Source: Fibrobacterota bacterium (lineage in GTDB: Bacteria > Fibrobacterota > Fibrobacteria > UBA11236). From it: 64,000 nt of DNA. The DNA lies in NCBI GenBank assembly GCA_043753995.1, contig JAYUVP010000304.1, positions 348 through 64,347 of the forward strand. Reading direction: 5' to 3'. Of this stretch, positions 34,472 through 53,496 are shown piece after piece (the first letter of the stretch is position 1; every line of letters begins with the position of its first letter). The position numbers and the translations under genes are program-made. Under the pieces are notes generated by a model. The model saw nothing but the letters and a program-made list of their open reading frames with translations, did not search any database and was not told where the DNA came from.

Positions 34472-34647
34472 AGAATGCGAAGGGTGTTAAGGCTTGTCGT
34501 CTGTAAACCAGGCATCGCGATACGCACCTTTTGGAGGCGGCATTTGCTGTGGCCGGTCCGTGGTAGAAAGGAGTCCGGTCCTCTTATCGATTTCCAAGTG
34601 CGGCCGTCTGCAGACCAAGCGGCAATCGCGCTCGTGCTGTCGGCCAA

Positions 34648-35544
34648 TCAACGCTCTCTCCCACGGGCATCCTTCTCAGATTTAGGGCCGAAACGGCGCA
34701 GAGCCGACTTGATGGTCGAATGGTCCCACGAATTTTTTCGTCTGTGTTTCGACGCTGGTAACTGAAGTGTGGAAGTTGGTTCTTGAATATTCAATAAGTA
34801 AACCATACCTCCCCAGAGATGGTTTAAAAATGTCGAATCCGGTGCCCCGCGGTATGGAGGGGTAATATGGCCCATGGCAGTAGTCCAAGCCTTTCCGCCC
34901 AGGTAGCTGCAAGACCAAGTCATGGGGTGATCAGTTCCAGGCTTGCCTTTGGGAAAGCTCGACTCGTCTACCGTCGTCAGAATTCGCATGCTGGGATTGC
35001 TTGCCGAACGGGGATTAGCTCGAAACCCATAAATCTCATCTATACGGGACCATCGTTTCGGCATACCCTTGGTTGAAGGATCCGTCGAATCCTCAACAAC
35101 TATCGTATGGGTCGTATTGGAATCTCCAGGCAGGCTTTGAAAATAAGCACCGCCGATCAGCTTTCCGTAAAAGACCCAATTCGTTTCCGCATCTAAGGCG
35201 GCATGGATAAATTGAGCGCTTCCACCCTTTTTAAACCAGGATTCAAAGGCATCTTGCTGGGAGTTGTTGAGAAAATCCCCGGTTGTCTTCAAGAAAATCA
35301 CGGACTTATAGTGGGCTAATCCGGTATCTGATATCAAGGCGGCATTTTCCGATGTGTCAACCAGTAAACCCTTGGTTTCGTAAAATTTTTTCAGAGCTGA
35401 TCGAGTGTCGGCAATATTGTTTTCACGAGTTGAGGATGTCTTGGTGAAAATCAAGACCCGATCGGCGGCCAAAGCTACGCCGGAAGCTAGGAGGGTCACA
35501 ATCCACCCGTGGCACCGAAACCGAGGACTCCTGTTTTCCATCAT
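34648..35544 (-). CDS. ThuA-like (class I GAT-fold) secreted protein
   Basis: VLIFTKT, FLKTTGDFLN, DEIYGF, DHPMTW and TAMGH motifs; basic tail ending DARGRER. Confidence 0.82.
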   Translation of the reverse strand: MMENRSPRFRCHGWIVTLLASGVALAADRVLIFTKTSSTRENNIADTRSALKKFYETKGLLVDTSENAALISDTGLAHYKSVIFLKTTGDFLNNSQQDAFESWFKKGGSAQFIHAALDAETNWVFYGKLIGGAYFQSLPGDSNTTHTIVVEDSTDPSTKGMPKRWSRIDEIYGFRANPRSASNPSMRILTTVDESSFPKGKPGTDHPMTWSCSYLGGKAWTTAMGHITPPYRGAPDSTFLNHLWGGMVYLLNIQEPTSTLQLPASKHRRKNSWDHSTIKSALRRFGPKSEKDARGRER

Positions 35545-35553
35545 TTCTCCAAT

Positions 35554-38500: not shown

Positions 38501-39144
38501 GAATACACGAAGGTTACGGCATAGGGTTCGGCGCGGCCTTGCTCGAAGCCGGGCCGCCAAGTGAAATAGCCATCACCCGCATCGCGACCCGCCGTTTCAA
38601 GCACGGCACCGGAAATGGAATCCTTGAGAGTCAAGGTCGTGCTGCCAGCCCAGGGATTCCGAACGCTAACGCGGAAGTGGAGAATGTCGTCTTCGTTGAT
38701 GGCCGTGTCGGTGGGTGCTTGTATTTCGGGGATGCTTGGTGCGACCACAACCGTTTCCGGCGTGTCTCTCTTGATCGGTAAATCCTTCGATTGAGAGCCG
38801 GATTCAAGAAAGGTCACTTCCTTGTTAACCCCTACTTTTCCATCCTTGTAGCCAATGATTGTGATCGTGTACTCGCGTCCTACCCGAGGATCGAGAGGTA
38901 GCCCCTTGACTTGGTTGGAGTCCCGCAAAATGCCGTGGAAAACCTCCTGCGAGAATTTCCCATCCTTGCTGTGTACGGTCACGATAAGAGAATCGAAGCG
39001 CAAAAGGCTGTCATTACTCTTGTCGATCTGCATGCTTAGCACATGCGCATTTTCCTCCGAGGTCGGACAGGCGACAAGGAAGAGACCGACGACGAGGGAA
39101 AGCCCTAAAAGGATTCGGCTAAGTAGGTTGTGATTCATTCGCAT
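35554..39144 (-). CDS. Large surface lipoprotein with cadherin-like/Ig-like repeats and a C-terminal beta-propeller
   Basis: Lipobox LVAC; three NRxPxL cadherin-like repeats; three DxTxP...GxHxLxVxExDxAGNWS Big-type repeats; repeated GxxGF blades. Confidence 0.75.
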   Translation of the reverse strand: MRMNHNLLSRILLGLSLVVGLFLVACPTSEENAHVLSMQIDKSNDSLLRFDSLIVTVHSKDGKFSQEVFHGILRDSNQVKGLPLDPRVGREYTITIIGYKDGKVGVNKEVTFLESGSQSKDLPIKRDTPETVVVAPSIPEIQAPTDTAINEDDILHFRVSVRNPWAGSTTLTLKDSISGAVLETAGRDAGDGYFTWRPGFEQGRAEPYAVTFVYSSATQKVEKITRVKVINVNRPPKLSPIENKTGQPESPVTFQVTATDPDGPDGLIVSVDTTTLPQTATFIQGAFNWTPNATQTGNYPIKFRANDGKDSDSLTVILSIGNVNRPPTLSFTADTTIFENDSLTLLISTSDPDGTTPKLFISGNPELPKGCIVTVDKPGPGQGTITWRPGFDQSRKDPYRLVIRAKDETTQVEKTLSISIRNQNRAPKLAEIGNKTVNAGATLSFEIAATDADGDTISFTARELPDGATFLGKSFSWTPSGNQTGNRSVTFRAFDGQDSDLVAVLISVGDIEPPPPLTIEITSPTQDTLINYTPVTVQFTVNGTPRQKTFRLSEGKNRLFVDTTVLGRTAFDTITIELDTTAPERPMVFAESPVNTRTPKWKWIGSGGGSGRFRIRLDSANFSDAIATRDTAFTAATDLSIGTHTLFVQEKDLAGNWSSSGSAAVRIDTTPPNPPLVSSTTGSLTNNAQPSWSWLTGGQGDLGVFQAKLDSPDFTSSDSTTKAKSFVSPLGLKDGAHVLYVRERDSAGNWSKVSASSIKIDRTPPGTPMLFALPKSPLNSLTPTWGWISGGDGIASYRFKLDNADLSGAAETIATRFTASPQLSEGPHTLFVQERDSAGNWSASGSRELTLAIRGPVSNTGFSPANVYDLSLSLNKENVIHVAFRDAMNEEKATVMRLNGLSWQFVGTAGFSSGRVFGTTLQIDNQGSPLVAYLDGDLEFRATVMKYTGSTWAVIGSPGFTPGMAGDLQLGILKDGSPIVTYRDTSAKASAMRFNGTNWVDLGPPGFSPGKVGAVKHTVSPSGTLIVLFEDETQTNRLTAMKFDGTSWVVLGNAGFTPGYISQPVIAADDKDIPYVGFQDFANGNRATVMRLQKSSWEYVGEPGFSDDIAQSNAIAIDKNGIPYFAFGEGVNSNLSVMRWHHLTWEYAGEPGLTTKGASYISMAISSTGVPYVGFSDEAKAKAASVYQISFDPEPN

Positions 39145-39743
39145 TAGGGTTTTATCCGGTCATCATGGGTGACGGGTTCGTCGGATTCATTCATCAAGAC
39201 ATACAAGGTGGTTCCGACGGCGGCGCTAAGGCCAATACCACCCGCCGTCCACCAAATCCAATTCGAAGACTTCTTCTTTGTTCCTTTTGCGGTCTTGGTT
39301 CCTGCGGCTGTTTCATTGCCCACGACATCATGGCCCTGAACATATTCCTGGTGCTTCAGGTGGTTTAGTTTCACGCTCTTGAAAATGGCGTCAACATTGT
39401 CGCTAATATAGAGATCGACCAATTCAATGGACGGTTTCAACTTCAAGAGTTGAATCATGTAGCTCTCAGCTTTCAGCCTTGTGGCTGAATCTGAGGCATA
39501 TATCACGCTGAGGTATTTGAAAACGAAGATGCTGTCTTCGCGGGTTTTCGGGGCGAATCTTGCCCGCCATTCCTCCAAGGCAAGCGTTGCTTGCTGGAAA
39601 TCGCCTTCAAAGAATGCGCTGTTGATTGTGTCTCTATCCAGCGATCCATTGGATTTGAACCCGAATTCCGCATTTGCGGCGGGAGCGAGTAGGCAAAAGC
39701 CAACTAGCAGGGCGAGCTTGAAAAATGGGGCCATCAGGGGCAA
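39144..39743 (-). CDS. Hypothetical secreted/membrane protein coupled to the Ig-like gene
   Basis: Signal peptide, helical TPR-like core and C-terminal TM (WIWWTAGGIGLSAAVG). Its stop overlaps the next start. Confidence 0.65.
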   Translation of the reverse strand: MPLMAPFFKLALLVGFCLLAPAANAEFGFKSNGSLDRDTINSAFFEGDFQQATLALEEWRARFAPKTREDSIFVFKYLSVIYASDSATRLKAESYMIQLLKLKPSIELVDLYISDNVDAIFKSVKLNHLKHQEYVQGHDVVGNETAAGTKTAKGTKKKSSNWIWWTAGGIGLSAAVGTTLYVLMNESDEPVTHDDRIKP

Positions 39744-39906
39744 AAGCTACTTTTTCCATGGTTCGCCCTATGGCGGGGAAGCGGCTGGATGGCATTGCGA
39801 ATGCCGGTTACACTTCACCGATTTGAATCGTCCAAGCGCGTACTTTTATGGTTCTAATGTGATTTACTGGCCTTTCAAGTAGACCGATGAACAAAAACAA
39901 ACTTCG

Positions 39907-42354
39907 ATGACCTCATACCTCAAACCCAGTGATCTATCCGGCGGTGACCTCTTGGGTTTGGGGAAACCCGATTTCCCATCAGGGCAAGCGCCTTCTGATA
40001 TTTTCACCAAGCCGAAGAGCGGCGGCGGCCTAGGTGGTGGTGGCAGTCTAGCCGGTCAACGTGCCCGCGACGATGCGAAGAAAACGCAAGAAGCGAAAGA
40101 TTGGAATGAAGCGACGGCGGGTATCGACCCGCCTCCTCAGCAAGCGACGCGGTCTTCAGGTATAAAGCCTCGCCTAGCCCGCGTGCGCTTTCTCGGCAAA
40201 GATCATCGAGTCGGCGATATGGTAGGGGTAGCCTGCGATACCTTAGACGGAGCAACGGCCCAAGGCGTCGTGTTCACCGTACTTGGCAAAGACGCCAAGG
40301 GTGAGTGGGCCGACCGTGATAGGGTGACCGGCCAAAAGGCATCCCAAGGCAGCGGGGCCGAAATGCTGCTCAATAAGCCCTATGACCAAGGCGATAATAC
40401 TCCCATCACCTTCAAGGTGAAAGCCACCCACCAGGGGGCCGAAACCGTTGAAAGCGCACCCATCACCGCCGAACCCGAAGAAGATTTCGACGGCATTCTG
40501 TATTACTCGCCAAAGCGTGAGGCCTATCTCTTGCTCGAATCGCAAGACGAGGCGTTGCCCTTTCTCGAAAAGATGCAGCAAATGCACGACTTGAATGAGG
40601 CTCGCCTTTCGGCCTGGCGGGAACCTGACTTGCAAAAGCGCAATGTATGGCTTGAAGAGGTAGAGAAGAAAACCGATGCCATGTTCGGCGGCAAGGCCAA
40701 TGTCAAAGCCGACAAGGCCTTTGAAGAATTGATTCAGGTTCAGGGTAATAAGGCTTGGGGCAAGAGCCATGAATGGGCTTATCTACCTGACGAACAAAGT
40801 CAAAAAGGGCGCTGGGTCGAGAAGAAGGCCCCTGAGGTCGTCAAGAAGCTTGAGAAGGTGCGTCAGAAGGTCATCAAGCAAAGCAATAAGCGAAGCCAGG
40901 CGCGATATGCCGAGCAAAAGCAAAAGGGGCAACAACAAAGTCAGAATCAAGCCAAGAAAAACGAATCCGATGACAGCAAGGCTCCTATCTGGAAAGGCAG
41001 CCTCAAAGCTCAACTCTTCGAAAAAGAGATCGAACCTTACAAGTACTGGGAATGGGCGGCGTATCACAAGAAGAAAGATTTTCTGAAAAAGGCCGACGGC
41101 AGCGATAACCCGTATTTCGATTTCAGTGGCGAAGCCGCCGTCATGCGTTTTATTGCGGGTTGGAGCGGCCCCGAAATTGATTTCAAGCCGCATAAGGGCA
41201 CCCTCACCCTTGGGGCATCGGGTGCTGTTTCATTCGCGGTTCGTGAGGGCAAGCTCTCGGGCAGCGTGAGTTGGCCTTCTGAAAAAGGCGTGAATATGCT
41301 GGGCTTTCTCGGTGAGATCAAGCATAAAGAAAGCTTCATCGAAAAAGGGCGTGGCGTTTTCATGCGCCTGCATTTGTCGGGTGTGGCCTCTTATTTCGAA
41401 GGCGTGTCGATCAAGGGCGCATTGGCTTTTCCCAAGATCGACTTCTCAAAGGCGAACGTGAAGAAAGAGGACAAGGGAAGCGATGCTACGGCCAGCAAGC
41501 GCAAGAACGAAGTGGGCGCGAAGGCCAGTATCCACGGGCTGGTAGGCGCTCAAGCCAAGGTCGAGGGGTCTTTGGCCGTGCAATGGCACATGGCAGGTGC
41601 AAGCAAGTTCGATACCTTGGCGGAGGTGAAAGGCGAGGCCGCAGGTACCTCCGGATTTGCAGCCAAGTTTGAAATGGAGATCGCTTACTCGAATGGCAAG
41701 TTCATTTTCAAGGCTTCGGCTGGTTTGGCCAAGGGTCTGGGTGGTGAGGGCGGCTATTCCTATGAAGTGGGTTTTGACGAAGGGGTTGTGCTCATTGGCT
41801 ATTTGCTTGATAGCGTGAATTGGCATTACATCAAGGCCATTCAGATAGAGGCATTCAACGCCTACACCGATTACACTTTTGCCATGATGGTCGAGGGTGT
41901 GGATGCGGTGAAAGAGAATGCCACGGATGCTGTCGCCAGAGTCGAGAATTTTACCGGGTGGTTTAGTAAGGAAGCTACTCGAAAAATGACATCGATCAAG
42001 TCGTACATACGCAGTTTTGCCGACAAGGTGCACCTTATGCGCCGTTCATCACCCGAGGCCTTAGGACGTGCCTTGAATGTGCTCATGCGCACCCGCGAGG
42101 ATGATGACTTCGAACACATCCTGTATATCCTCAAGTTTGCCCAAAGTGATCACAAGCTGCGGTGGATCGTGCGCGAGATACCCCAGGTGGCATTGCCGCC
42201 GGAAACGGCTCCGAACTATGAGTCAGAGAAAGAGCGGTTGTATCAGGAGGGGAAGAAGATGTTGTTTGTGTTCGGTATGGGTGACGGAACCCCGAAGGCA
42301 AAACCAAATGAAAACTACCTGTCAAAGCTACAAGTGATTCTGGGGGCTCCATGA
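39907..42354 (+). CDS. Putative antibacterial toxin/effector (815 aa)
   Basis: No signal peptide; Gly/Ala-rich beta region (GASGAVSF, GLVGAQAKVEG, AGLAKGLGGEG); ATGA overlap with a MORN/YwqK-type gene. The toxin call is inference. Confidence 0.45.
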   Translation: MTSYLKPSDLSGGDLLGLGKPDFPSGQAPSDIFTKPKSGGGLGGGGSLAGQRARDDAKKTQEAKDWNEATAGIDPPPQQATRSSGIKPRLARVRFLGKDHRVGDMVGVACDTLDGATAQGVVFTVLGKDAKGEWADRDRVTGQKASQGSGAEMLLNKPYDQGDNTPITFKVKATHQGAETVESAPITAEPEEDFDGILYYSPKREAYLLLESQDEALPFLEKMQQMHDLNEARLSAWREPDLQKRNVWLEEVEKKTDAMFGGKANVKADKAFEELIQVQGNKAWGKSHEWAYLPDEQSQKGRWVEKKAPEVVKKLEKVRQKVIKQSNKRSQARYAEQKQKGQQQSQNQAKKNESDDSKAPIWKGSLKAQLFEKEIEPYKYWEWAAYHKKKDFLKKADGSDNPYFDFSGEAAVMRFIAGWSGPEIDFKPHKGTLTLGASGAVSFAVREGKLSGSVSWPSEKGVNMLGFLGEIKHKESFIEKGRGVFMRLHLSGVASYFEGVSIKGALAFPKIDFSKANVKKEDKGSDATASKRKNEVGAKASIHGLVGAQAKVEGSLAVQWHMAGASKFDTLAEVKGEAAGTSGFAAKFEMEIAYSNGKFIFKASAGLAKGLGGEGGYSYEVGFDEGVVLIGYLLDSVNWHYIKAIQIEAFNAYTDYTFAMMVEGVDAVKENATDAVARVENFTGWFSKEATRKMTSIKSYIRSFADKVHLMRRSSPEALGRALNVLMRTREDDDFEHILYILKFAQSDHKLRWIVREIPQVALPPETAPNYESEKERLYQEGKKMLFVFGMGDGTPKAKPNENYLSKLQVILGAP

Positions 42355-43106
42355 AATGGGTAGGACTCATACTGGCGATGACGGCCATAAGCTGTTTCCC
42401 TGCTGGAAAGAAATATCCGAACGAATGCGAGAAGCGCAGGTTTTCTCGGCACAATGGAAAACCGACGGAAATTGTGACCACCTGCATTTACGAAGCCAAA
42501 TTTGTGACGGAATACTATAAGGGCAAGAAAAACGGCAACCAGGTTGCCTTTGTCAACGGCGTGAAACGGTCAGAGACCCATTTTTTAAACGACAAAGAGC
42601 ACGGTCTAGTTCAAATCTTCGACAGCCTCGGCAATGTGACCGGCATCGAGCATTTTCACAACGGCAAGCAGGTGGGCGAAATACGACGATGGCACCGCCC
42701 CGATCAGTTGAGCGAGGTTATTCAATACGACAGCTTGGGCCGCAAAAATGGCTTGTGGCAGGCCTGGTGGCCAGATGGCAAACTGATCCAGGAGTCGCAC
42801 TATGTCGCCAACATTTGCACCCTAACCACTGAGTACTACCGCAATGGAAGAAAGCGCTATTACGAGCGCTTGCCACTAAAGGAATCAACAGGGATTATGT
42901 CTGAAAAGCTCATCGATGCCGAAAGCTGGTCTTGGTCGGGTAAGTCGATTGCGAAAGTGGTTTCTGGCACCGGCGTCCTCATTACCTTGCCTCAAAACTT
43001 TGAGGATAGCGCAACCCCGTGGGTGGCCTATCGTGCCGACTATAAAGACAGCATCGTCATTAAACTCACCGAACTCGACTCGGTCACCATTCAGAAATAC
43101 AAGTAA
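42351..43106 (+). CDS. MORN-variant repeat (YwqK antitoxin-like) lipoprotein, putative immunity protein
   Basis: Lipobox-like AISC; repeats KKNG, KEHG, KQVG and RKNGLWQAWWPDGKL. Confidence 0.75.
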   Translation: MKWVGLILAMTAISCFPAGKKYPNECEKRRFSRHNGKPTEIVTTCIYEAKFVTEYYKGKKNGNQVAFVNGVKRSETHFLNDKEHGLVQIFDSLGNVTGIEHFHNGKQVGEIRRWHRPDQLSEVIQYDSLGRKNGLWQAWWPDGKLIQESHYVANICTLTTEYYRNGRKRYYERLPLKESTGIMSEKLIDAESWSWSGKSIAKVVSGTGVLITLPQNFEDSATPWVAYRADYKDSIVIKLTELDSVTIQKYK

Positions 43107-43288
43107 CTCATGCGAAATCTTCTATTCATCCTCTCCCCGTTGCGCGGGGACGGCACCCGGTAGGCGCTTCATTACGTTTGCCGGGTGCCAACAAATTGAA
43201 GCGAACCTAAAGCCGCCTTATCGCCGTGATCAGTCGTTGACTATGTCTTGATGGTTCTGCGTAGAACCCCGTTTTCGTCCGGTGAAGG

Positions 43289-44083
43289 TCAGCGGATGGC
43301 AATAATCGTATCTAAAACAGTATCGATTTTTCCTTCGTCCGTCAGGCGGTTGCCCGTTCCTCTGAGCTTCAAAGTATCGGGTAACGTCTCGCCTTCATTA
43401 AGGATTTCATATTTGAAGCCGTAGCAAGTATTCGCGGTGGAATCACAACTCCCAGCATTGTCTCCATAAAGATCAATGAGTGTTGTTTGTGGCGGCGACT
43501 CCAAGGACGTGAGCTTAATACCCGAAATAATTTCTCCAAAGTGTAGGCTGTTGAATTCCGTGCGCAGGAAAATCCTGCCCTTGGTATCATGGGTGATTCG
43601 GATGCCCTCGGGTGATTTGCCATACTCCCCAAACTCGCCCAGATCAGGAATGAAGCGAATATCCGCGCGCTTGCTTCCTACGATAGCAGCGCTCAGCGTC
43701 GGCGAGCAAGCGTGGCACTCACTCCGATCTGAATTTTCGATGATAAATACGGTGCTAGAATCACTCAGCTTTTGTTCCAGCAAGATCCGTGAATAAACCG
43801 TACCCTCGATCCTTTTCAAAGGATTGTCCGCCGCCGGAGTCCAGGCTGTATGCGGTGAACCGCAACCTGAATAAGCCGTATCGCTTCCGATGCAAACATG
43901 AAGCGGTGCGCCATGGGAGTGTTTAATCAGCACATCGACGGCGAGCGGCACTGATGGCGAGTTGGGTGGTACCGGCTTCGGCTCCCGGCATTGGGTCACC
44001 GCCATGAAAAGGGCCAGTGAAAACGCTAGGCCAAGGATCGCAGGTTTCGACTTTTGCCGATTGAATATCATCTGATTGTCCAT
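43289..44083 (-). CDS. Hypothetical exported protein/lipoprotein
   Basis: 264-aa ORF; hydrophobic N-terminus ending VTQC; several Cys pairs (CHAC). Family not recognised. Confidence 0.6.
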   Translation of the reverse strand: MDNQMIFNRQKSKPAILGLAFSLALFMAVTQCREPKPVPPNSPSVPLAVDVLIKHSHGAPLHVCIGSDTAYSGCGSPHTAWTPAADNPLKRIEGTVYSRILLEQKLSDSSTVFIIENSDRSECHACSPTLSAAIVGSKRADIRFIPDLGEFGEYGKSPEGIRITHDTKGRIFLRTEFNSLHFGEIISGIKLTSLESPPQTTLIDLYGDNAGSCDSTANTCYGFKYEILNEGETLPDTLKLRGTGNRLTDEGKIDTVLDTIIAIR

Positions 44084-44097
44084 TGCCGAGAGTCGCC

Positions 44098-44496
44098 CTA
44101 CCGGGCGGCTTTTTTATTTGCGGGCTTTTTGCTGGGTGCTTTCGCCTCGCGTCTGCCCTGGCCCGTATGAGCCGTATAGCCTTCGATCAGCTTGAGAAAG
44201 GCCCGCTGTTCGTTCGACGGCAGCTTGGCAAAAATTTCCTGTATCCTCGCCATGCGGCTATTGCCGTGAAAGAGCCGATTCGGTTCGGTCTTTAGAGGTT
44301 CACCTATGCCGAGCAATTGATTGGGGGTAACGCCAAGGATCTTGCCGATCTCAATGAGCTTTTGAATCGAAGGGTAAGCTACTCCTTGCTCATAGCGGGT
44401 TATGAGTTGTTGAACCACGCCCAAGGCCTCGGCCATTTGGACTTGGGTTAAGCCCTTGGCTTGCCGTAGCTTGCGAATGTTTGCTCCGAGTTCCAC
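44098..44496 (-). CDS. XRE-family HTH repressor of the element
   Basis: IRKLRQAKGLTQVQMAEALGVVQQLITRYEQG; divergent from the primase operon. Confidence 0.9.
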   Translation of the reverse strand: MELGANIRKLRQAKGLTQVQMAEALGVVQQLITRYEQGVAYPSIQKLIEIGKILGVTPNQLLGIGEPLKTEPNRLFHGNSRMARIQEIFAKLPSNEQRAFLKLIEGYTAHTGQGRREAKAPSKKPANKKAAR

Positions 44497-44535
44497 GAAG
44501 CAAAAGGTAGGGTGGGGTTTCGTGGGGCCTTCCGA

Positions 44536-44556
44536 AATACTATCCTAAGTAGTATT
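44536..44556. promoter_or_regulatory. Inverted-repeat operator between xre and the primase operon
   Basis: AATACTA-N7-TAGTATT in the AT-rich intergenic gap. Confidence 0.55.
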
Positions 44557-44603
44557 ATGATCTATCTTAAAAAACTTACGATCACCCCTTGACACCCCTC
44601 CCG

Positions 44604-44969
44604 ATGAACCCACCCACAGGCACCCCCCAGACCCCCGGCGAGCCCCGCCCCAAGGACGACCTGCTGGTCTTGATTGCCGATCTCCACTTGGGGGCCTTCC
44701 TCATGTGCAAGGGCGTGCCCTTCAAAGGCCTGCAATTCGACGTGCGGGGCCGCGCAACCCTCATGTTCGAGGGCCGCGAAGCCATCCGGCTTCGAGCGGC
44801 CTATCACCAGGATGAAGTCAGCGTTCACCTTCCCAAGTTCAAAGGGGCCTACAACGCCCTGCGTGACTTGCTCTGTGCAAAACCCGAAGATACCCGTAAC
44901 CCCGAAGGTACCCATGCCCATACCCGAAGCCCTCTTGCAGAAGGTCAAGGCCGAAACCAATCTGCTTGA
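44604..44969 (+). CDS. Small hypothetical protein, possibly DUF5659-like DNA-binding protein
   Basis: DLHLGAFLMCKG...LMFEG...YHQDEVSV...YNALRDLL pattern; first gene of the primase operon (ORF from TTG 44589). Confidence 0.5.
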   Translation: MNPPTGTPQTPGEPRPKDDLLVLIADLHLGAFLMCKGVPFKGLQFDVRGRATLMFEGREAIRLRAAYHQDEVSVHLPKFKGAYNALRDLLCAKPEDTRNPEGTHAHTRSPLAEGQGRNQSA

Positions 44970-47643
44970 AATCGCCCGCTCTTTCGGTCTTAGCTTAACC
45001 CCCAAGGGCGATGACCACTTCACCCGCTGCCCCTTCCATCACGACGACACGCCGTCACTCTCGCTCAATGCCAAAAAGGGACTCTTCCATTGCTTCGGCT
45101 GCGGGGCCAAGGGCAATGCCATACAGTTCGTGCAGAAAATGGAAGGGCTGACTTTCCCCGAGGCTTTCAAGAAGGTGGCGGGTAATCGTGCCACACCCGA
45201 AGCCGCCACACTCGTGAGCCCAATGCCCGCAAGTCCCCTAGCCGCATCTGCCTCAAGGCTCATCACCCAAGCCCTCTCCCGCATGCGTCTTTGCCTCGAA
45301 GAAACGCCCAAGGTGCTCGAATACCTCACGCAAACGAGGGGCCTTGCCTTCTTGCTCAACCGGCAAAGCCGTGAGGCTGTCGGCGCGGGCTTTTGCCCCG
45401 AAGATTTCGGCATACGGCTGGATGCCAGGGCCAAGAAAGAATTGACCGCCGCCGGGCTTCTGACGCCCGAAGGCTTTCCGCATTTCGCGGGCTGCGTGGT
45501 CTTTCCGCTTCGCGATGTTAACGGGGAGGTTACCGGCCTTTACGGCCGCAAGATTGCGGGCGACGGCCACTTCTACCAGAAGGGCGAGCGGCGGGGCTTG
45601 TTTGCCTTGCATGGCGGCGGAGGCAGTGACAGCAACGGCAGCAATGGCGGGCTCTTCATCGCCGAATCGGTGATCGATGCGCTCAGCTTGCATCAAATGG
45701 GCGCTTCATCGGTGTTGGCCTTGCATGGTGTTAACGGCTTCACGCCCGCGCATGAGGCTTATATCAAGGCTCGCGCTCAAGATGGCCTTGGCTTATACCT
45801 CGTGCTCGATGGCGACCGGGCGGGCCGTGAAGCCTCGGTCAAACTCGCCGAGCGCATCAAGGCCATGGGACTTTTGGCGCATATCCTCGAAATGCCCGAA
45901 GGAAAAGATCCCAACAGTTTTCTTTTAGCCGCACAAGCCGCCAGCCCACGCACTTTGAAAGACTTGCAGTCCCTTACAGGTTACCCCAAGCCGCACGCGC
46001 CCGCCATAAGCCTGCGCCGCGACGGTGATAGCTTCATCGCCCTTACGCCCCTGCGCCGCTATGTCATCACCGGCCTTACCGCCCATGGTTTCGACCGCCT
46101 CCGGGTCACCCTCAAATGCATTTGCCTCAAGAGCCCCGGCATATTCCATATCGACAGTCTCGATCTCTATGCGGCCCGTGCCCGCGCCTCTTTTGCCGAA
46201 GACGCCGCCGCCGAGTTGAAGCATAAAGAAGCCGACATCGCCGCCGAACTCAAGACCTTAATTCCCTTGCTCGAAGAAGCCCGCTTAAGCCTTGCGAACA
46301 GCACGCAAGAGGCGGCAGTGCCCACCATGAGCGAAGCGGAAAAGGCCGAGGCCTTGGCGGCCTTGAAGTCGCCGACCTTGATAGCCGATCTCATCAAGAA
46401 TTTCGAGGCTATGGGGCTTGTGAGCGATGAGAAAGCCAAGCTCCTCGGCTATCTCGGCACGGTGTCGCGCCTGCTCGAAATGCCCTTGGGCATGCTCATC
46501 ATTTCACGTTCGGGCGCGGGCAAGACGGCTTTGCAAGATGCCATTTGCGCCTTGGTGCCCGGCGAGCACGTGATCAAATACACCCGCCTCACGGGCCAAG
46601 CCCTCTTCTATAAGGAGCGCGACGGACTCAAGTACAAAGTCTTAGCCATCGAAGAAGAAGACGGCATGAGCGCCGCGAAATATTCGATACGCACCCTCGC
46701 CAGCTCGCAGCGGCTCACCGTGGCCACCACCCGAAGCGATCCCAAAACCGGCAAGCTCAAGACCGATGAATACTTGGTCGAAGGCCCGGTCTTCATCCTC
46801 ATCGCCACCACCAACCCCGACGCGCTGGACGCCGAGACGCGCAGCCGCTTCATCATCTTGACCATAGACGAGAGCCCCGAGCAGACGCGGCGCATCATGG
46901 AATCGCGCAAGCTGAGCTACACCTTGGAAGGCAGGCGCAAGCATCGGGCGGGAAGAAAAACGCTGTCGCATTACCACAACATGCAGCGCTTGCTTAAGCC
47001 CATCGAGGTGGTGAACCCTTTTACGCCTTATATCGATTACCCCTTCGACCGCCTGCAAATGCGCCGCGAGTTCGGCAAGTACATGGCCCTCATCAATGCG
47101 ATAACCCTTTTGCATCAGCATCAGCGCGAGGTGAAGCATGATCTTGATGACGGCAGCAATACGCCCTATATCGAAACCACGGTCGAAGACATCGCCTTGG
47201 CCAATGAGCTTGTGCTTGAGTTCTTTCCTAATTCGCTCGATGAATTAGCCCCGCATACCCGCAATCTCGCAGCCGAGGTGATGAAGCTCATCGAGAAGAG
47301 CGGCGGCGACACTCGCTTCACCCGCAAGGCCTTGCGTGACTTCTGCGGCTGGACGGATTGGAGCATACGCCAAGGGTTAGAACAGCTTGTGATCCTTGGT
47401 TATATCATCAAGACCATGGCGCAAAACGGCCTTTGCAATACTTATGAACTGGTGATAGACCCTTGCGGAGAAGACCGCAGCTCACTCTTTCTCACTTCAC
47501 CCGACGAATTGCGCAAACGCCTGGAAGCGGCTAGGGCTGAGGCCAGGACGGCGGGGAAGGTGGCCACTCTATCGCCGAACCTTGTGCCGATGAAAAACGG
47601 CGGCGAGGCGGCTAAAAGAAAAACCACTGGGGGCCGGTCATGA
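44914..47643 (+). CDS. CHC2 zinc-finger/TOPRIM DNA primase fused to a P-loop ATPase (putative primase-helicase)
   Basis: CPFHHDDTPS...CFGC zinc finger; TOPRIM (AESVIDAL, LDGDRAG); Walker A SRSGAGKT; Walker B-like LAIEE. ATG 44914 has a GAAGG RBS. Confidence 0.88.
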   Translation: MPIPEALLQKVKAETNLLEIARSFGLSLTPKGDDHFTRCPFHHDDTPSLSLNAKKGLFHCFGCGAKGNAIQFVQKMEGLTFPEAFKKVAGNRATPEAATLVSPMPASPLAASASRLITQALSRMRLCLEETPKVLEYLTQTRGLAFLLNRQSREAVGAGFCPEDFGIRLDARAKKELTAAGLLTPEGFPHFAGCVVFPLRDVNGEVTGLYGRKIAGDGHFYQKGERRGLFALHGGGGSDSNGSNGGLFIAESVIDALSLHQMGASSVLALHGVNGFTPAHEAYIKARAQDGLGLYLVLDGDRAGREASVKLAERIKAMGLLAHILEMPEGKDPNSFLLAAQAASPRTLKDLQSLTGYPKPHAPAISLRRDGDSFIALTPLRRYVITGLTAHGFDRLRVTLKCICLKSPGIFHIDSLDLYAARARASFAEDAAAELKHKEADIAAELKTLIPLLEEARLSLANSTQEAAVPTMSEAEKAEALAALKSPTLIADLIKNFEAMGLVSDEKAKLLGYLGTVSRLLEMPLGMLIISRSGAGKTALQDAICALVPGEHVIKYTRLTGQALFYKERDGLKYKVLAIEEEDGMSAAKYSIRTLASSQRLTVATTRSDPKTGKLKTDEYLVEGPVFILIATTNPDALDAETRSRFIILTIDESPEQTRRIMESRKLSYTLEGRRKHRAGRKTLSHYHNMQRLLKPIEVVNPFTPYIDYPFDRLQMRREFGKYMALINAITLLHQHQREVKHDLDDGSNTPYIETTVEDIALANELVLEFFPNSLDELAPHTRNLAAEVMKLIEKSGGDTRFTRKALRDFCGWTDWSIRQGLEQLVILGYIIKTMAQNGLCNTYELVIDPCGEDRSSLFLTSPDELRKRLEAARAEARTAGKVATLSPNLVPMKNGGEAAKRKTTGGRS

Positions 47644-47661
47644 CGGCGGCAGGCTTGGCCC

Positions 47662-47767
47662 ACCCTGTGAACCCTGAGGCACCCTGTGAGACCCTGTGTG
47701 AAAAGAAGTCACAGGGTTTAAACCCTTTTGTTTCCGGGCCTTACGGTCGCTTTTACACCACCCTGCG
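47662..47767 (+). repeat. Iteron-like ACCCTG(TG) array downstream of the primase
   Basis: ACCCTG at 47662, 47671, 47681 and 47691; inverted CACAGGGT at 47710-47717; further ACCCTG at 47760. Confidence 0.7.
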
Positions 47768-47817
47768 GGCTTTTCGGTAAAAGGTGGGTGGGGGTGCGAA
47801 AAACGAGGGTAAAGCCG

Positions 47818-48819
47818 ATGCAAAGCGGCATGAATGCGACCCTGCCCCCGGCTTTTACCGGCCTTTCGCTTCGCTTTCGTCTCTGCCTTGAGCGCTATCG
47901 TGAGCACTTGGAGGCCAAGGGTCATTCATCGCATACCGTGCGCAGCTACACCCACACGGCCAAAGACGTACTAGGGTATTTGGCTGGCTTTCATATCGAG
48001 ACCTTACGAGAGGTCTTGCCGCAACACCTGCACGCCTATCAAAACAGCCTCATGGAAACAAGGTCAAGCGGCAAGCCCCGCAGCCTACGCACCGTAACCT
48101 TGCGGTTAACCGAGGTGCGGGCCTTCTTCGCCTACCTGCATGCCCAAGGCGAAATCCTGCTCAACTCGTCTTTAAGCCTGGTCCTGCCCAAGGCGCAAAA
48201 ACGCTTGCCGCGTTTCGTGCCGCCGGTTAACGACATGGCAAGCCTCATCGAAGCGCCGATTTTGGACGGGCCTTTGGGCCTAAGAGATCGGGCCATATTG
48301 GAATTGCTTTACTCATGCGGATTAAGAAGCAGTGAGGCCCGCGCCATGGAGGTCGCCGATCTCGACATGCGGAGCCGGGTTCTCTTCGTGAGAGGCAAGG
48401 GCGGCAAAGATGCCCTGGTGCCTTTCGGCAAGACGGCGGCCAAGGCCTTGGTCAATTACTTGCACCATGGCCGCCCCAAGCTCACTGGCAAAGGCGGTGA
48501 TGCACAGCCTTACCTCTTTCTCAGCAAGAGTGGCCGCAGCATCACTTCACAAAATTTGCTCGACATGGTGCGGCGTCATGCGAAGGCTTTGAACCTGCAA
48601 GGCAATATTTCGCCGCATGGTTTGCGGCATGCGTGCGCCACCCACCTTTTGCAAAACGGCGCCGATATACGGCACATTCAAAAGCTCTTGCGGCATAGCA
48701 GTCTCAACACCACTCAGATTTACACCCGCCTTTGCATCGACGATTTGAAAACAGCGCAAGAGCGCTACCACCCGCGTGAAAAAATCGCTGCAAAAACCGA
48801 TGCCGAAATCAGCGCATGA
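47818..48819 (+). CDS. Tyrosine recombinase 1 (XerC/XerD-like)
   Basis: RDRAILELLYSCGLRSSE, RGKGGK, HGLRH and LLRHSSLNTTQIY give a complete R-K-H-R-H-Y set (ORF from 47728). Confidence 0.93.
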   Translation: MQSGMNATLPPAFTGLSLRFRLCLERYREHLEAKGHSSHTVRSYTHTAKDVLGYLAGFHIETLREVLPQHLHAYQNSLMETRSSGKPRSLRTVTLRLTEVRAFFAYLHAQGEILLNSSLSLVLPKAQKRLPRFVPPVNDMASLIEAPILDGPLGLRDRAILELLYSCGLRSSEARAMEVADLDMRSRVLFVRGKGGKDALVPFGKTAAKALVNYLHHGRPKLTGKGGDAQPYLFLSKSGRSITSQNLLDMVRRHAKALNLQGNISPHGLRHACATHLLQNGADIRHIQKLLRHSSLNTTQIYTRLCIDDLKTAQERYHPREKIAAKTDAEISA

Positions 48820-49831
48820 GAATGCCCGCCTTGGTGAACTCGGCGGTTTTTTAGAAGGCTATCTCTTTTCTTTTAGCCGCGAAAGCCGCCAAGGTTTTTC
48901 GCTTTTGTCGCACCCGTCTTCGTCACAATCGTCTGCTAGGCTATCGCATGCGAAGAGCACGGCTTTGCACCTGCATTACACCTTGGGGCTCTTTCTTAAA
49001 AACATGCGGGCCATGGGCTGCGAAGCGCCGTCAGACATGCAGGCCGAGCACATCACGCGGTATTTCGCGGGCATGCGGAATAGGCGACCCGCCACCTTGG
49101 CTTATCATCGCTGGGCCATACAGGATTTCTTCGCGTGGCTTATTGAGCGGGGTTATTTGCTCATCAGCCCATGGCCGGAAAGTCTTGCACTCAAAACCCC
49201 GCCGCCGTATCCGCGCCTCATTTTACCGCCGCAAGAAATTCTCGGGCGGTTTGCGGCCGTCACGGGGGCCGCTGGTGATGACGATAGGAAGAGCGGCACG
49301 CCGCTGGCCCTAAGAGACCGCGCAATTCTGGAAATCGCCTACGGCCTGGGACTACGCATGAGCGAATTGTGCCGCTTGAATGTGGGCGATATTCGCGGCG
49401 ACCTGCTTTTCGTGCGGGGCAAGTTCGGCAAAGAGCGCATGATGCCGCTAGGGCTTTCGGCGTCTGAGTCACTTGCGCGTTACCTCGCCTTATCTCGCCC
49501 TATACTCAAGGCCCGTCAAAAAGCCGAGACGCAAGCCGCCGGGTATCCGTTGGAATCAAGCGACCCGCTTTTCCTTTCACGCTGCGGAACGCGGCTATTG
49601 CCCGGCGGTTATGAATGGCTCATGAAGCGGTGTCGCAAGGCCATGCCGGGGCGTTTCTCAATGCACGGTTTGCGGCACGCTTTCGCAACCCACATGCTTG
49701 AAGGCGGCGCACCCTTGCCGGTGATACAAGCCTTGCTCGGACACGAGAAAATGGAAACGACCTCACGCTATGCCCATGTAAGCGTGAAAGCGCTTCGAGA
49801 AGTTCTAGACCGGTGCCACCCAAGAGCGTAG
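48776..49831 (+). CDS. Tyrosine recombinase 2 (XerC/XerD-like)
   Basis: RDRAILEIAYGLGLRMSE, RGKFGK, HGLRH and LLGHEKMETTSRY give a complete catalytic set; overlaps the end of recombinase 1. Confidence 0.93.
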   Translation: MKKSLQKPMPKSAHENARLGELGGFLEGYLFSFSRESRQGFSLLSHPSSSQSSARLSHAKSTALHLHYTLGLFLKNMRAMGCEAPSDMQAEHITRYFAGMRNRRPATLAYHRWAIQDFFAWLIERGYLLISPWPESLALKTPPPYPRLILPPQEILGRFAAVTGAAGDDDRKSGTPLALRDRAILEIAYGLGLRMSELCRLNVGDIRGDLLFVRGKFGKERMMPLGLSASESLARYLALSRPILKARQKAETQAAGYPLESSDPLFLSRCGTRLLPGGYEWLMKRCRKAMPGRFSMHGLRHAFATHMLEGGAPLPVIQALLGHEKMETTSRYAHVSVKALREVLDRCHPRA

Positions 49832-50429
49832 GCGACCCGAGCGCGGGAATCATCACGTAAAATTCAGATTGACGCTGAATGCGTATCTGAGGGCGACGGT
49901 TTGCCACCTATTCCGAATATCTGAGCCAATGGTTGATGGGTTTCCGTTGCCCACTGGTTTTTTGAGGGTGAACACATACATACCGCTCAAGTGTTCGCGC
50001 AGATCTACCGCAATGCCAATTTCACCCATGCTGGTTTTGATGTTTTTGACAATTTCATGGATGCATGCCTTGTTTATCGCGATTATATCTGTCGTACACG
50101 TCACCATAAGTAGATCCTTTGTGACTTATCGTTACCATGCTTGCATTATGTTTCGAGCCAATCAAGTTGGCGGGGTCTTTCGCGCCTTTGCGGTGCTGTT
50201 AGGTTTCTCTTTGTCCTGACAGGCCAAGGCTTTGCATTTGATGCGAGGCCACGGCCAAACGGAGTTTGTCCCGCCGCCGCCTCGCTTGACATTCTTTGCG
50301 CCATCGCCTGCCATGGGTTCACATCACCGCAAGCACGCTTTGGCGGCTTTCATCAAATCCGCCAAAGCGTGCGCGTCATTGCCGGCGGGCCGCTCGCCCT
50401 TCCTGTTCGCTTCTGCTTCGAGGCGAGCT

Positions 50430-50506
50430 TTTACATAATGACGTTTACGCAAACCCTGTCGGGTGCGGCCGCACGGCGGCCTTCGCGTAAAGCGGCATTA
50501 TGCAAA
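50430..50506 (+). other. Composite recombination site A: two inverted dif-like sites (6-bp and 7-bp spacers)
   Basis: TTTACATAA-TGACGT-TTACGCAAA (50430-50453) ... TTCGCGTAA-AGCGGCA-TTATGCAAA (50482-50506). The function is inferred. Confidence 0.7.
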
Positions 50507-50616
50507 CCAGCCGGTTCCACATACGCCCGCTAGGGCGGGCTATGCCATGTCGCGGCGCGAAAGCCCCCTTTGCGCACCCCTGGTGGTTAGATTTCATCCA
50601 CTGTCACTCATCAAGG

Positions 50617-51279
50617 ATGAATTCGGATATGCTTCGATTTGGAAAATTTGTCGTGTTCTCAGGAATGATTTGCTTGCTTGCATTATCAGGTTGCAATGAC
50701 CCGAAATCAGCTTCAAAAGAAAATTTCAAAAAGGCTCTTCAAGTCTATTACGATGCCCACCCTTTGATTGTCACTCAAATTTGGCTGACGCTGCCGGTGA
50801 TTGAGGGCAGTTCGGCGTATAAAACGAATGAAGAATTTGTGACGTTTTTCGCCTCGGTCGGCTACTTGGAAGGCCGTGACACGGTTGCCGAAATTGATTC
50901 TGTCGGATATTTGGAAGGACACTTTGCGCGTGTCAATATCAAAATCAAGCGCCCCACAAAAGTTTGGCAATTGACCGAAGAGGGAAAAAAGAATTTCATA
51001 ACCACGTCAAACCCTTTGGTTGGTTCGGTAGGTGGTTTCAGATGGGCCGATGTTCAGGTTAAGGACGTGGAGTCGTTCACCGAACCGGCGGACATGATGG
51101 GCAAGCGTGTAAGCGAGGCAACCTATTCGATCACCCTTGTGAATGAAAAACCTTGGGTCAACCAAATCAAGGGGAAAAGGGGGTTCGCTGCCAACTTTAT
51201 GTACCTCGACCAAATTGGCGCTGCAAGAAAATCGAGTTTGGTTCTGACTTCGGACGGATGGGTTGACGCAAGGCAGTAA
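50617..51279 (+). CDS. Hypothetical lipoprotein
   Basis: Start ATG 50617 or 50629; lipobox LSGC followed by NDPKSASKENFKKAL. Lies between composite sites A and B. Confidence 0.7.
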   Translation: MNSDMLRFGKFVVFSGMICLLALSGCNDPKSASKENFKKALQVYYDAHPLIVTQIWLTLPVIEGSSAYKTNEEFVTFFASVGYLEGRDTVAEIDSVGYLEGHFARVNIKIKRPTKVWQLTEEGKKNFITTSNPLVGSVGGFRWADVQVKDVESFTEPADMMGKRVSEATYSITLVNEKPWVNQIKGKRGFAANFMYLDQIGAARKSSLVLTSDGWVDARQ

Positions 51280-51287
51280 ATCCAGGA

Positions 51288-51912
51288 CTTGGGCGTCCGC
51301 GTAGCGGAAACCCATTTCGGTACTCTTTTCCGCTGCCACCATCATTTTCAAATGGCTTCCCAAGCATTGAAATTCTGTGTTCATCGACCTTGGGCTTCCG
51401 CGCAGCGGAAGACCAAGGCCACAAGCAAGCACTAGGCCGCTACAGCGTGGCGGCGTCTCATGCGCGTGCGGGGTACGGCTCCACACGCGCCAGCCCGCAC
51501 CGCCGCCGTCATATACGGGTTACCCTCTCGTTTGGCCTTCCTCTCCCGCTGTCTCATGACTCGCCCGTGCCTCGACATTTGGTCCTTGCTTGCGACAGGA
51601 CTCGGGGATTAGGCCGCTCGCTTCGCGAGACGTCCTAACCCCCGAGTTCGTCGGAACGCCTCGTAGCATTGTCCACTCTCCAGGGAATAGGGTGGGTGGC
51701 GCGCTAGGCGACCCTAAGCCCCTTGGCGGCTTAATGCCCACAGGGCCGCCAAGGGGATTGCGGCAAGTTTGCATAATCACGACTTAAACGAACCCCGTCA
51801 ACCGGGGTTTGAGTAAGTCGGATTATGTAAAGCCGCCCGCGAAGCGTGCGGCGGACTTGGCGTTGGGTCGCCAGCCCTTGGGGTGCGGGGAGCGCGGAGC
51901 ACACCAAGGGCT
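51288..51912. other. Hairpin-dense non-coding region
   Basis: Stems at 51388-51418, 51600-51647, ~51720-51756 and 51873-51912; a 22-bp direct repeat at 51288 and 51389; no convincing ORF. Confidence 0.65.
51768..51831 (-). other. Composite recombination site B: inverted copy of site A architecture
   Basis: Minus strand reads TTTACATAA-TCCGAC-TTACTCAAA-CCCC...GGGG-TTCGTTTAA-GTCGTGA-TTATGCAAA. Confidence 0.7.
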
Positions 51913-52096
51913 TGACGCAGTATGCGCGGTGCCGTCATGAATGCCAAAGTGGCGGACGGTCGCCGGGCTTGCCCGGCGGTGGTCTGCCACCATGCTAGGC
52001 ACGGCGCAGGATGCGGCAAAGCGCGGGGGGATGGGAGGAGGACAGGGAATCTCCTGGTTATCTTTCGTGTTACCTCGTTATACCCGGAGTCTTTAC

Positions 52097-52549
52097 ATGG
52101 ATTGGCGCAGCGTCATGCGTATTGTCTATGCTGCATCGCTGGCTTTCGTTGGCTTGTTCTTCCTTGCCGTCATGCTGGCGCAAATCGAGGTGGCTAAACA
52201 AATTGCGAAGCTCCCGGTACTCTCATTCAGCATGATGTCCTTGCTTTGGCTATCGCCGGGCGTGTTGGCCGTGCTGTCGGCTTGGCGTCTATGGTCCGCT
52301 AAAGGGGCGGCGCTCGTCTTTTGGGCTTCGGTGAGTCCGGCTTATGTCCTTGCACGCTTTTGGGCGCATCAGCGCCCCGCATGGCTTGGCGGCATGGTTC
52401 ACGGCGAATGGGGGTTGGCTTCGGCCATGAGCGGCGGCCCCGACAAGATGCTGGCGGCAGTGATATGGCTTGCCATGCTCATCCTAGGGCTTGGGGGCTT
52501 ATTCGCCGTTGCCGCCTTCTTTTTCCCTAAAGGCAATCCTAAGCCCTAG
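52097..52549 (+). CDS. Hypothetical integral membrane protein (~4 TM)
   Basis: ATG 52097 with GGAG RBS (ORF from 51941); hydrophobic helices. Confidence 0.6.
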   Translation: MDWRSVMRIVYAASLAFVGLFFLAVMLAQIEVAKQIAKLPVLSFSMMSLLWLSPGVLAVLSAWRLWSAKGAALVFWASVSPAYVLARFWAHQRPAWLGGMVHGEWGLASAMSGGPDKMLAAVIWLAMLILGLGGLFAVAAFFFPKGNPKP

Positions 52550-52595
52550 AGTGGGGGGTCAAAAAAAGAGCCTTATACGATTTTTTGGACCTCTG

Positions 52596-52634
52596 TAGGT
52601 GATAATGGAAATCATCACCTATGTGCTTTCGGGA
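52596..52634 (+). repeat. attR: symmetric tyrosine-recombinase core plus the 30-bp direct repeat
   Basis: TAGGTGATAA-TGGAAA-TCATCACCTA (9/10 inverted arms); 52605-52634 is identical to 33917-33946. Confidence 0.85.
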
Positions 52635-53144
52635 GCTCTGGAGCATCGCGACTCGCTGGGCAATGGCGGTCTCCTGAAACGCGATACCGTGCAACGCATG
52701 CGCGCGGGCACGGGCATACGCCATAGCGAAGCCAATCCCGATTCCAATAAGCCCTTGCATCTGTTTCAAATCTGGATTTTGCCCCAGGTCAAGAATCTTT
52801 CGCCGGCCTATGAAGATCGGTATTTCGATCCGCAGGGCGCGCTTGGCAAGTGGCAATTGCTGGCTTCGAAGGATGGCCGCGAAGGCAGTTTAGATATCGC
52901 TCAGGATGCGAGCTTATGGCGGGTGTTTTTGCGGCCAGGCGAAGAGGTATCGCTCACGTTACCTGAGGGCGAAGGCCACGCCTTTCTACAATTGGCGAGC
53001 GGCGAAGCCGAGGTCAGCACGGTGGGCGAAGGAGAGGCGGCGGCTACACTCAAGGGGAGTGATGCCGCCGCGATGAGCCAAGTGAGGAGCGTGAAGGTGA
53101 AAGCACTGCAAGCCACCGAGGCCTTATTATTCGGGTTGAGATAG
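52605..53144 (+). pseudogene. Displaced 3' fragment of the pirin gene (lacks codons 1-61)
   Basis: Begins MEIITYVLSG and is highly similar to residues 62-245 of 33734-34471; upstream sequence is unrelated to pirin. Confidence 0.88.
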
Positions 53145-53154
53145 GCCTTGCAAA

Positions 53155-53496
53155 TTATTCCTTAGAAGGAAACTGCGACGCGATCCAACCCACTACGGTG
53201 ACAACGAGCCAACCCAATACAGCGGGCCATAGTCCGTCTATGGTAAATCCCGGTAATAGCCAGGCCACCAAGCCCAACATGGCCGCATTGATCACGATTA
53301 AGAAAAGTCCCAAAGTGATCACGGTGATAGGAAAGGTGAGTAAGATGAGCACCGGTTTCACCACCGCGCTTACCACGCCAAAGAGGATTGAGGCTAGGAT
53401 TAAGGTCCCCCATCCCTCGACTCGGAATCCTGGTATCAGATAGGCCGCGAGCCACAAGCTCAGGGCGACGACTAAAAAACGGATGAGTATGGACAT
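53155..53496 (-). CDS. Phage-holin-family (YvlD-like) membrane protein
   Basis: PGFRVEGW, VKPVLILLTFPITVITLGLFLIVINA and PGFTIDG motifs. Confidence 0.88.
   Translation of the reverse strand: MSILIRFLVVALSLWLAAYLIPGFRVEGWGTLILASILFGVVSAVVKPVLILLTFPITVITLGLFLIVINAAMLGLVAWLLPGFTIDGLWPAVLGWLVVTVVGWIASQFPSKE

Follow-up and report, generated by a model that had tools for sequence, protein, structure and literature searches.

The window analyzed here, meaning the whole stretch of 64,000 nt, contains a pirin gene whose 3' part is present twice, once at either end of an 18.7-kb segment (Table 1). The upstream copy completes an ORF that matches the Pfam families Pirin and Pirin_C_2, and its hybrid nature is supported by alignment with relatives and by synteny with contig L013. 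The downstream copy is followed by a Holin_4_2-like gene and then by a hemerythrin-like gene, the same as in L013. Both copies open with the identical 30-nt block and continue as a direct repeat that has diverged (81% identity over 540 nt). When 33917-34471 is compared with 52605-53144, the first 240 nt are 90-95% identical and the rest about 70%. Conservation of the N-terminal cupin domain may explain this drop in identity, as may gene conversion close to the crossover.

Table 1. Coordinates of features in the window, and core sites of related elements on other contigs.
Feature	Position	Strand	Description
Complete pirin ORF, hybrid	33734..34471	+	245 aa; host codons 1-61 plus element-borne 3' part (33917-34471)
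attL core	33908..33933	+	Host pirin arm CATCGCGATA, spacer TGGAAA, arm TCATCACCTA; same as predicted attB core
Identical 30-nt block	33917..33946 = 52605-52634	+	Opens the diverged direct repeat; Logan k=31 unitigs break exactly here
Inserted element	33918..52605	+	18,688 bp; absent from syntenic empty site in L013/L014
Cargo region	34648..43106	.	ThuA-like, Ig-like surface protein, 199-aa partner, 815-aa, MORN-repeat
HTH repressor-like protein	44098..44496	-	RstR/cI-like, below cut-off; divergent from the 113-aa gene and primase operon
Small conserved protein	44589..44969	+	Upstream of primase; 113 aa in relatives; matches no known family
Primase-helicase-like protein	44674..47643	+	989 aa; DnaG zinc ribbon, Toprim, C-terminal part with GAGKT P-loop
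Yr1, Xer-like tyrosine recombinase	47728..48819	+	Pfam Phage_integrase and Phage_int_SAM_1
Yr2, paralogous Xer-like tyrosine recombinase	48776..49831	+	Tandem with Yr1
Conserved element-side flank	52547..52595	+	G-run, A-run, GGCCTTATAsG, T-run; adjoins core
attR core	52596..52621	+	Element-side arm TAGGTGATAA, spacer TGGAAA, pirin-side arm TCATCACCTA; same as predicted attP core
Displaced host pirin 3' part	52605..53144	+	179 codons, 5'-truncated, frame still open
Putative strand-exchange (overlap) region	52606..52612	+	TGGAAA, at most TGGAAAT; twin at 33918-33924
E2 attP	L026, 4391		...AAAGGTGATAT / TGAACAA / TATCACGTTCGGGGATGGG...
E2 attR	L024, 12131; L025, 12152		...AAAGGTGATAT / TGAACAA / CGTCACCTTCGGGGACGGG...
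E2 attL	L025, 70		...CCAGGGGACGA / TGAACAA / TATCACGTTCGGGGATGGG...
Core, L004			TAGGTGAGTA / TGGAAA / TACTGTCCTA
Core, L006/L027			TAGTACAGTA / TGGAAA / TACTGTCCTA
Core, L001			TAGGTGACAT / TGAACA / ACGTCACGTT
Core, E2 attP			AAGGTGATAT / TGAACA / ATATCACGTT
Core, L010			TAGAAGTGTA / TAAAAG / TACAATACTT

The segment encodes a cargo region and a replication/recombination module. Among the cargo genes, those for the ThuA-like protein, the 1196-aa Ig-like surface protein and its 199-aa partner lie on the minus strand, and the 815-aa and MORN-repeat genes on the plus strand. The 199-aa gene and the surface-protein gene (about 1100-1200 aa) form a pair at 35554-39743 (minus strand), inverted relative to other members of the element family described below; the same pair is found at 2227-6265 of L001 and 2069-6001 of L004. 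Two long contigs found via the 199-aa protein (L022 and L023) carry a chromosomal paralogue pair and no element, and the 199-aa gene with a large surface-protein gene is also an ordinary chromosomal pair in other Fibrobacteria. The primase-helicase-like protein is 58-60% identical in family members and is probably the replication protein of the element, which is itself probably self-replicating. The HTH repressor-like gene is a conserved neighbor in all relatives. At the right end, the flank adjoining the core belongs to a stretch of 45-50 bp kept in every family member found (G6-8, TCR, A6, GGCCYTATAGG, A3-4, T4-5), and is a candidate accessory or bending site. The same flank was considered as a promoter or terminator and set aside, with no consensus match to either, and RNAalifold returned weak, non-covarying pairing for 52547-52595. 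In the related element E2, the middle of this flank is replaced by a perfect 9-bp hairpin (GATCCGAAA-AA-TTTCGGATC).

The two recombinase genes, Yr1 and Yr2, overlap or abut with nothing between them, and all nine family elements seen have the pair in tandem. The best NCBIfam models for Yr1 and Yr2 are XerC/XerD (about 240 and about 160 bits against cut-offs of about 330-335), and the best solved relative of both is E. coli XerD (1a0p). Xer-like recombination, as proposed in an earlier note made from the sequence of this window, is in keeping with these matches, even with scores below the cut-offs. Alignment with the XerD catalytic domain places all six residues of the R-K-HxxR-H-Y active site in both proteins. 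Searches with Pfam and NCBIfam identified SAM-like core-binding and catalytic domains only, with no N-terminal arm-binding domain in Yr1 or Yr2, and no match to an Xis-like family in the element. The longest Yr1 ORF opens at a TTG codon; the identical database protein (P0001) has 333 aa, and the true start is therefore probably the Met near 47818. Several relatives also have a 71-aa ORF between the primase and Yr1 genes, which is missing from the window.

Read from the window, positions 52596-52621 are TAGGTGATAATGGAAATCATCACCTA and positions 33908-33933 are CATCGCGATATGGAAATCATCACCTA. The right arm TCATCACCTA is TAGGTGATGA when reverse-complemented, and the attR arms pair at nine of ten positions around the 6-bp TGGAAA. 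Ungapped identity between the two junctions starts at A33917/A52605, the base adjoining the spacer. Both of these readings had been made in the earlier note and are confirmed here. The 16-mer TGGAAATCATCACCTA has two exact copies in the window (33918 and 52606) against a chance expectation of 0.03, and the overlap sequence TGGAAA(T) is identical in attL and attR.

The closest homologue of the pirin (P0122, 82% identical) sits on contig L013, and its neighbors match both flanks of the window (MarR, pirin, a 113-aa holin_4_2-like protein and hemerythrin) with nothing in between. By blastn, L013 aligns to window positions 32375-34465 and 52605-54050, the second alignment starting exactly at the A of ATGGAAAT. 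The empty site and this alignment boundary therefore set the length and the ends of the element given in Table 1. The L013 empty site reads CATCGCGACA-TGGAAA-TCATCACCTA, one synonymous base away from the attB that had been predicted in the earlier note, and the empty site in L015, a more distant relative, reads CACAAGGACA-TGGAAA-TCATCACCTA. Pirin is uninterrupted at the syntenic locus in L013, L014 and L015. An apparent joint in a wastewater run (33934>52756) was also considered as an empty site and rejected; it is the pirin of another organism, with only short conserved patches in common. The window thus shows the arrangement of a gene-end replacement: the pirin 3' part is directly repeated, and pirin has an intact ORF on one side of the element and lacks its 5' part on the other. 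We conclude that 33908-33933 and 52596-52621 are very probably the attL and attR sites left by conservative site-specific integration of the 18.7-kb element into a pirin gene, and that the host is probably one of the Fibrobacterota.

Homologues of Yr1 (50-54% identity) all lie within one conserved module. Its order is the HTH gene (minus strand), the 113-aa protein, a primase of about 900 aa, sometimes the 71-aa protein, Yr1, Yr2 and variable cargo, and its right end consists of the conserved 45-50-bp motif and the core, beyond which lies a target gene truncated at its 5' end. L004, L006-8, L027 and L028 have pirin as the target, at the same codons, and L001 and E2 have a hydantoinase-B gene; no tRNA targets were found in L006, L008 or L010. 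One family contig comes from a Fibrobacterota MAG, and the cargo homologues are named Fibrobacteria. The contigs of three Yr1 homologues (L030-L032) end before the att sites, and the L001 contig stops short of the left end of its element. In L010, the core is followed by non-coding DNA and a cargo-like ORF (1150-1925) with no truncated target gene, and this end may be an attP or belong to a member without gene-end replacement. A scan of IMG/VR with the conserved end motif gave no match, and a scan with the Yr1-family alignment gave only Xer-like integrases of 29-45% identity; the family is absent from IMG/VR.

The cargo and the end regions differ between members. Restriction-modification cargo lies just before the right end in L024 (9495-11772), L027 (11643-13890) and L031 (9747-12184), and is of two kinds: Vsr with a Dcm methylase and an Eco29kI-like enzyme, or Eco57I-like with BsuBI/PstI-like. 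RadC-like genes are found among the cargo of other family members. Repeated palindromes of the type TTTGTACAAA / GTACA lie 60-100 nt inside the right end in L001 (14570-14615), L004 (14630-14665) and L028 (13810-13865), and may serve as iterons or accessory sites; the corresponding place in the window is coding. A distant version of the module occurs on the Ralstonia solanacearum Po82 megaplasmid (L029, 157611-161700), with an HTH gene (minus strand), a 1036-aa primase-helicase and a single Xer-like recombinase. Its primase-helicase is 33-36% identical and its recombinase 35% identical to Yr1, and the region is unannotated in the PLSDB table. Caballeronia megaplasmids carry the same distant module of HTH, primase and single recombinase.

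By itself, the attR palindrome is not significant, because inverted repeats of its quality (10-nt arms, at least nine matches, 6-nt spacer) occur three times in the window and 2.3 times in shuffles, which rules it out as statistically exceptional on its own. The chance of its placement exactly on the junction is about 1e-4 by position. The argument for the palindrome is a comparative one from sequence, and rests on this junction position together with recurrence and covariation in relatives. In the register of 10-nt arms and a 6-nt spacer, eight distinct family cores have 81% complementary cells against 59% in shuffles (reached by 0 of 500), although the set is small and partly non-independent, because the attP and attR of one element have one arm in common. 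Seven of the ten arm pairs show compensatory changes on both sides, the covariation score is 0.47 versus 0.14, and sliding the register by 1-3 nt lowers pairing to 29-52%. All eight cores have a complementary pair next to the spacer, A-T in those of the pirin type and T-A in those of the hydantoinase type. The arms of E2 attP and of L006 each pair at 9/10. In wastewater runs, contigs of an element about 96% identical to that of the window cross the same end, with an A>G change at 52604 that makes a perfect 10/10 palindrome and leaves the spacer unchanged. Taken together, these comparisons indicate that the palindrome is functional.

The Xer-type geometry that had been claimed for the core is upheld by the covariation in eight cores and by the 10/10 wastewater relative. 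The dif-like ATAA/TTAT inner ends, which the earlier note had also pointed to, are not kept in the family, where the cores vary at this place (ATAA/TCAT, ATAT/ATAT, AGTA/TACT), which qualifies this part of the claim. A further proposal was that the left arm of the element had evolved to mirror pirin coding sequence. The element arm does covary with the target arm (GTGAT/ATCAC, ACAGT/ACTGT, GTGAC/GTCAC), so that the mirroring itself holds; the element might instead pick targets that resemble its arm. In L004 (14728-14753), the left arm TAGGTGAGTA matches the host-derived right arm at 7/9 with 9-nt arms and is the exact mirror of TACTCACCTA, from which the pirin copy carried by that element is predicted to be ATA CTC ACC TAT (ILTY). 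The pirin attB is non-palindromic, with a left arm that matches the consensus arm at 2/10, and binding there must therefore be weak or cooperative. The left arm of the hydantoinase attB matches at 7/10.

The position of the crossover was mapped in E2 (12,082 bp, hydantoinase-B target), which was recovered as attP, attL and attR from three assemblies. The attP lies mid-contig in L026 (12,080 bp), which represents one element unit, circularly permuted, and could stem from a tandem dimer instead of a free circle. In a shorter reading, attP is GGTGATAT/TGAACAA/TATCACG, attR is TGAACAA/CGTCACC and attL is GGGGACGA/TGAACAA/TATCACG. The sequence common to all three is only the 7-bp TGAACAA, with no longer identity in the flanks, which makes the exchange site-specific and places it inside this 7-bp core. 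When the sites are aligned by their arms, TGAACAA falls on TGGAAAT of the window (52606-52612), and its left edge is the spacer edge. E2 thus bears out the crossover at the spacer edge that the earlier note had proposed, by confining the exchange to 7 bp whose left bound is that position. The left bound of the overlap is also set by the window itself, where identity starts at 52605; both bounds are set by the E2 sites. The symmetry of the arms has its axis in the middle of a center of 6 or 8 bp. A reading with 9-bp arms and an 8-bp center was rejected, as its first center base differs between E2 attP (T) and attB (A); a symmetric 6-bp spacer is therefore the best fit, and it is this symmetry of the arms that favors a 6-bp overlap.

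Read depth and distribution bear on the mobility of the element. In sediment runs X1 and X2, the element forms one 18,521-nt unitig (34114-52634) at 15.4x and 14.7x, and the host flanks (20000-33900 and 52700-64000; about 30 kb) have a depth of 7.3-9.1x. The resulting ratio of about 1.9 could be accounted for by roughly one additional copy per genome, circular or in tandem, or by a second host strain; in the Logan k=31 unitigs, all four junction types give the same words, and the circle cannot be separated from the integrated form because the identical block (30 nt) is one base shorter than k. The replication/recombination module (44700-49800) is about 96% identical in wastewater runs (X3, X4, X5, X10 and others), with weaker matches in sludge, soil and freshwater runs. 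The wastewater relative is without 34.1-38.0 kb, a span that holds the ThuA-like gene and the greater part of the 1196-aa gene. The host flank was found only in X1 and X2, and the wastewater, sludge, soil and freshwater runs that contain the module gave no sign of it. A widespread module with a host flank confined to two runs argues for horizontal movement.

The following course of integration is proposed. The attP would be the near-palindrome TAGGTGATAA-TGGAAA-TCATCACCTA, with its right half and the sequence downstream serving as the element's own copy of the pirin 3' part. Yr1 and/or Yr2, which are without an arm-binding domain, would bind to the 10-bp arms in both attP and the pirin attB (codons D-M-E-I-I-T-Y). 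Cleavage at both edges of the 6-bp TGGAAA (at most the 7-bp TGGAAAT) would be followed by strand exchange via a Holliday junction. Integration would cut pirin after codon 61, and the full-length ORF would be restored at attL by 184 element-borne codons, with the host's own 179 codons left intact at attR. Sequence comparison bounds the region of exchange, within which the exact cleavage points are putative, as are the arm that each protein binds and the order in which strands are exchanged; both recombinases may be needed, and the window copy may still excise.

How the two recombinases divide this work allows more than one reading. One of them may be the sole integrase, acting as a homotetramer on the near-palindromic core in the manner of Cre, XerH or the Brujita integrase, with the other doing a different job such as circle multimer resolution or directionality. 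We hold this tentatively, as a possible account somewhat short of a probable one. An arm symmetry of 9/10 to 10/10 fits well with one specificity of DNA binding, and near-palindromic arms need not imply two different recombinases; moreover, the distant primase-module relatives in Ralstonia and Caballeronia megaplasmids have a single Xer-like recombinase. Set against it are the retention of the tandem pair, both with all catalytic residues, in 9/9 family elements, and the overlapping or abutting genes, which resemble those of co-translated partners. A second specificity would also more easily explain the poor left arm of attB, and we may speculate that this arm is one reason for having a second recombinase.

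The alternative division of labor is that Yr1 and Yr2 constitute an element-encoded heterotetramer in the style of XerC/D, the target of which can be reset by a few base changes that make the element's own arm mirror a conserved coding motif. We consider this unlikely. If it held, related elements could hop between unrelated genes and repair each with the 3' part that they carry, and the pair would be a naturally retargetable integrase directed at motifs such as HGHRD-MEIITY in pirin and GT-MNNxTFG in hydantoinase B.

Site-specific integration by the element's own recombinases is favored over two accounts that dispense with them. Entry by homologous (Campbell-type) recombination between the roughly 550-bp pirin fragment of the element and the host pirin would make the palindrome incidental, which agrees with its not being statistically rare in the window, and the 90-95% identity of the first 240 nt of the pirin copies is enough for RecA-type recombination. 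This account is nevertheless very improbable, since the flanks of E2 attP, attL and attR diverge at once on both sides of the 7-bp core, the palindrome covaries across members with different targets, and two recombinase genes and the conserved end motif always adjoin the site. About equally improbable is that host XerC/XerD act here on a dif mimic, the strategy of CTXphi and other IMEX elements. Arms of 10-11 bp, a spacer of 6 bp and ATAA at the inner end of the left arm are reminiscent of dif, but the target is inside pirin or hydantoinase-B coding sequence and not at chromosomal dif, the element brings its own recombinase pair, which is missing at this locus in the empty-site relative, and the ATAA/TTAT ends are not kept in the family. 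The site is neither dif nor the place of a host XerCD/dif reaction.

In design, the site is a canonical tyrosine-recombinase core, with inverted arms around a 6-bp spacer, an identical overlap in the partner sites and a cognate active site in the encoded enzymes. As the att core is textbook, the main value of the finding lies in having given access to the element. The family to which it led consists of integrative elements of 12-19 kb in Fibrobacteria, probably self-replicating and always with two tandem Xer-like recombinases and a primase-helicase, which insert in conserved motifs within genes for enzymes and supply a long substitute for the gene end. It appears not to have been described. 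The family is tractable, with natural attP, attL, attR and attB sites, arms that covary with the target and two different targets already in hand, and it lends itself to testing how arm-less tyrosine recombinases select their targets and switch between them, and whether an XerC/D-like heterodimer can be run by a mobile element itself. The restriction-modification and surface-protein cargo point to a role in the ecology of Fibrobacteria.

Among known systems, XerC/XerD-dif and the IMEX elements that use it (CTXphi, the gonococcal island) share with the window element simple recombinases without an arm-binding domain, for which XerD/XerC are the nearest relatives. E. coli dif has 10-11-bp arms, a 6-bp spacer and an ATAA inner end, and two paralogous recombinases side by side, on inverted arms of about 10-11 bp with a 6-bp spacer, are likewise common to XerC/XerD-dif and the window. 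In contrast to that system, the window recombinases are element-encoded and fall below the XerC/XerD equivalog cut-offs, the target is coding sequence, the ATAA/TTAT ends are not conserved and there is no known FtsK link; the outcome is an integrated replicon with a replacement gene end.

Phages 21 and e14 integrate in icd and carry a replacement gene end. Gene ends are likewise replaced by genomic islands that integrate in dusA or at the trmE 3' end (PMC8409611). All of these resemble the window element in inserting inside a conserved protein gene, in restoring the ORF with their own copy of the gene end, and in recombining at the edge of the duplicated segment. They differ in using lambda-type integrases with arm-binding domains, usually together with an Xis, whereas the window has two simple Xer-like enzymes and a long replacement segment (554 bp, 184 codons). 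The Brujita integrase, XerT of Helicobacter TnPZ and the IntKX group are simple Xer-related integrases on mobile elements (PMC8138268). They too have only core-binding and catalytic domains and small palindromic att sites, but one recombinase acts in each, unlike the tandem pair always found in the window family.

Multi-recombinase elements include Tn554 (TnpA/B/C), SEs (IntA-Tfp-IntB-Srap), GInts and RIT elements (PMC10214605, PMC5385486). Here again, at least two tyrosine recombinase genes in one operon drive site-specific insertion. However, neither between Yr1 and Yr2 nor next to them do the gene tables show a Tfp, Srap, TnpC or GinD-like partner, and the window family has no GinC/D or recombinase trio, its neighbors being the primase and variable cargo. 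In NCBIfam, the Yr proteins match Xer models and not those families. The window further differs in that exchange is conservative, takes place across the spacer common to both sites and restores the gene, rather than transferring a 6-bp footprint, and in the element's own primase-helicase. Lastly, the Tycheposons of Prochlorococcus (bioRxiv 10.1101/2020.12.28.424599) were compared by their general design. They belong to another phylum, use tRNA targets and have a single recombinase; like the window element, they are small and integrative, unite a tyrosine recombinase, a replication module of primase/helicase type and cargo that varies, and bring along a piece of the gene that they target.
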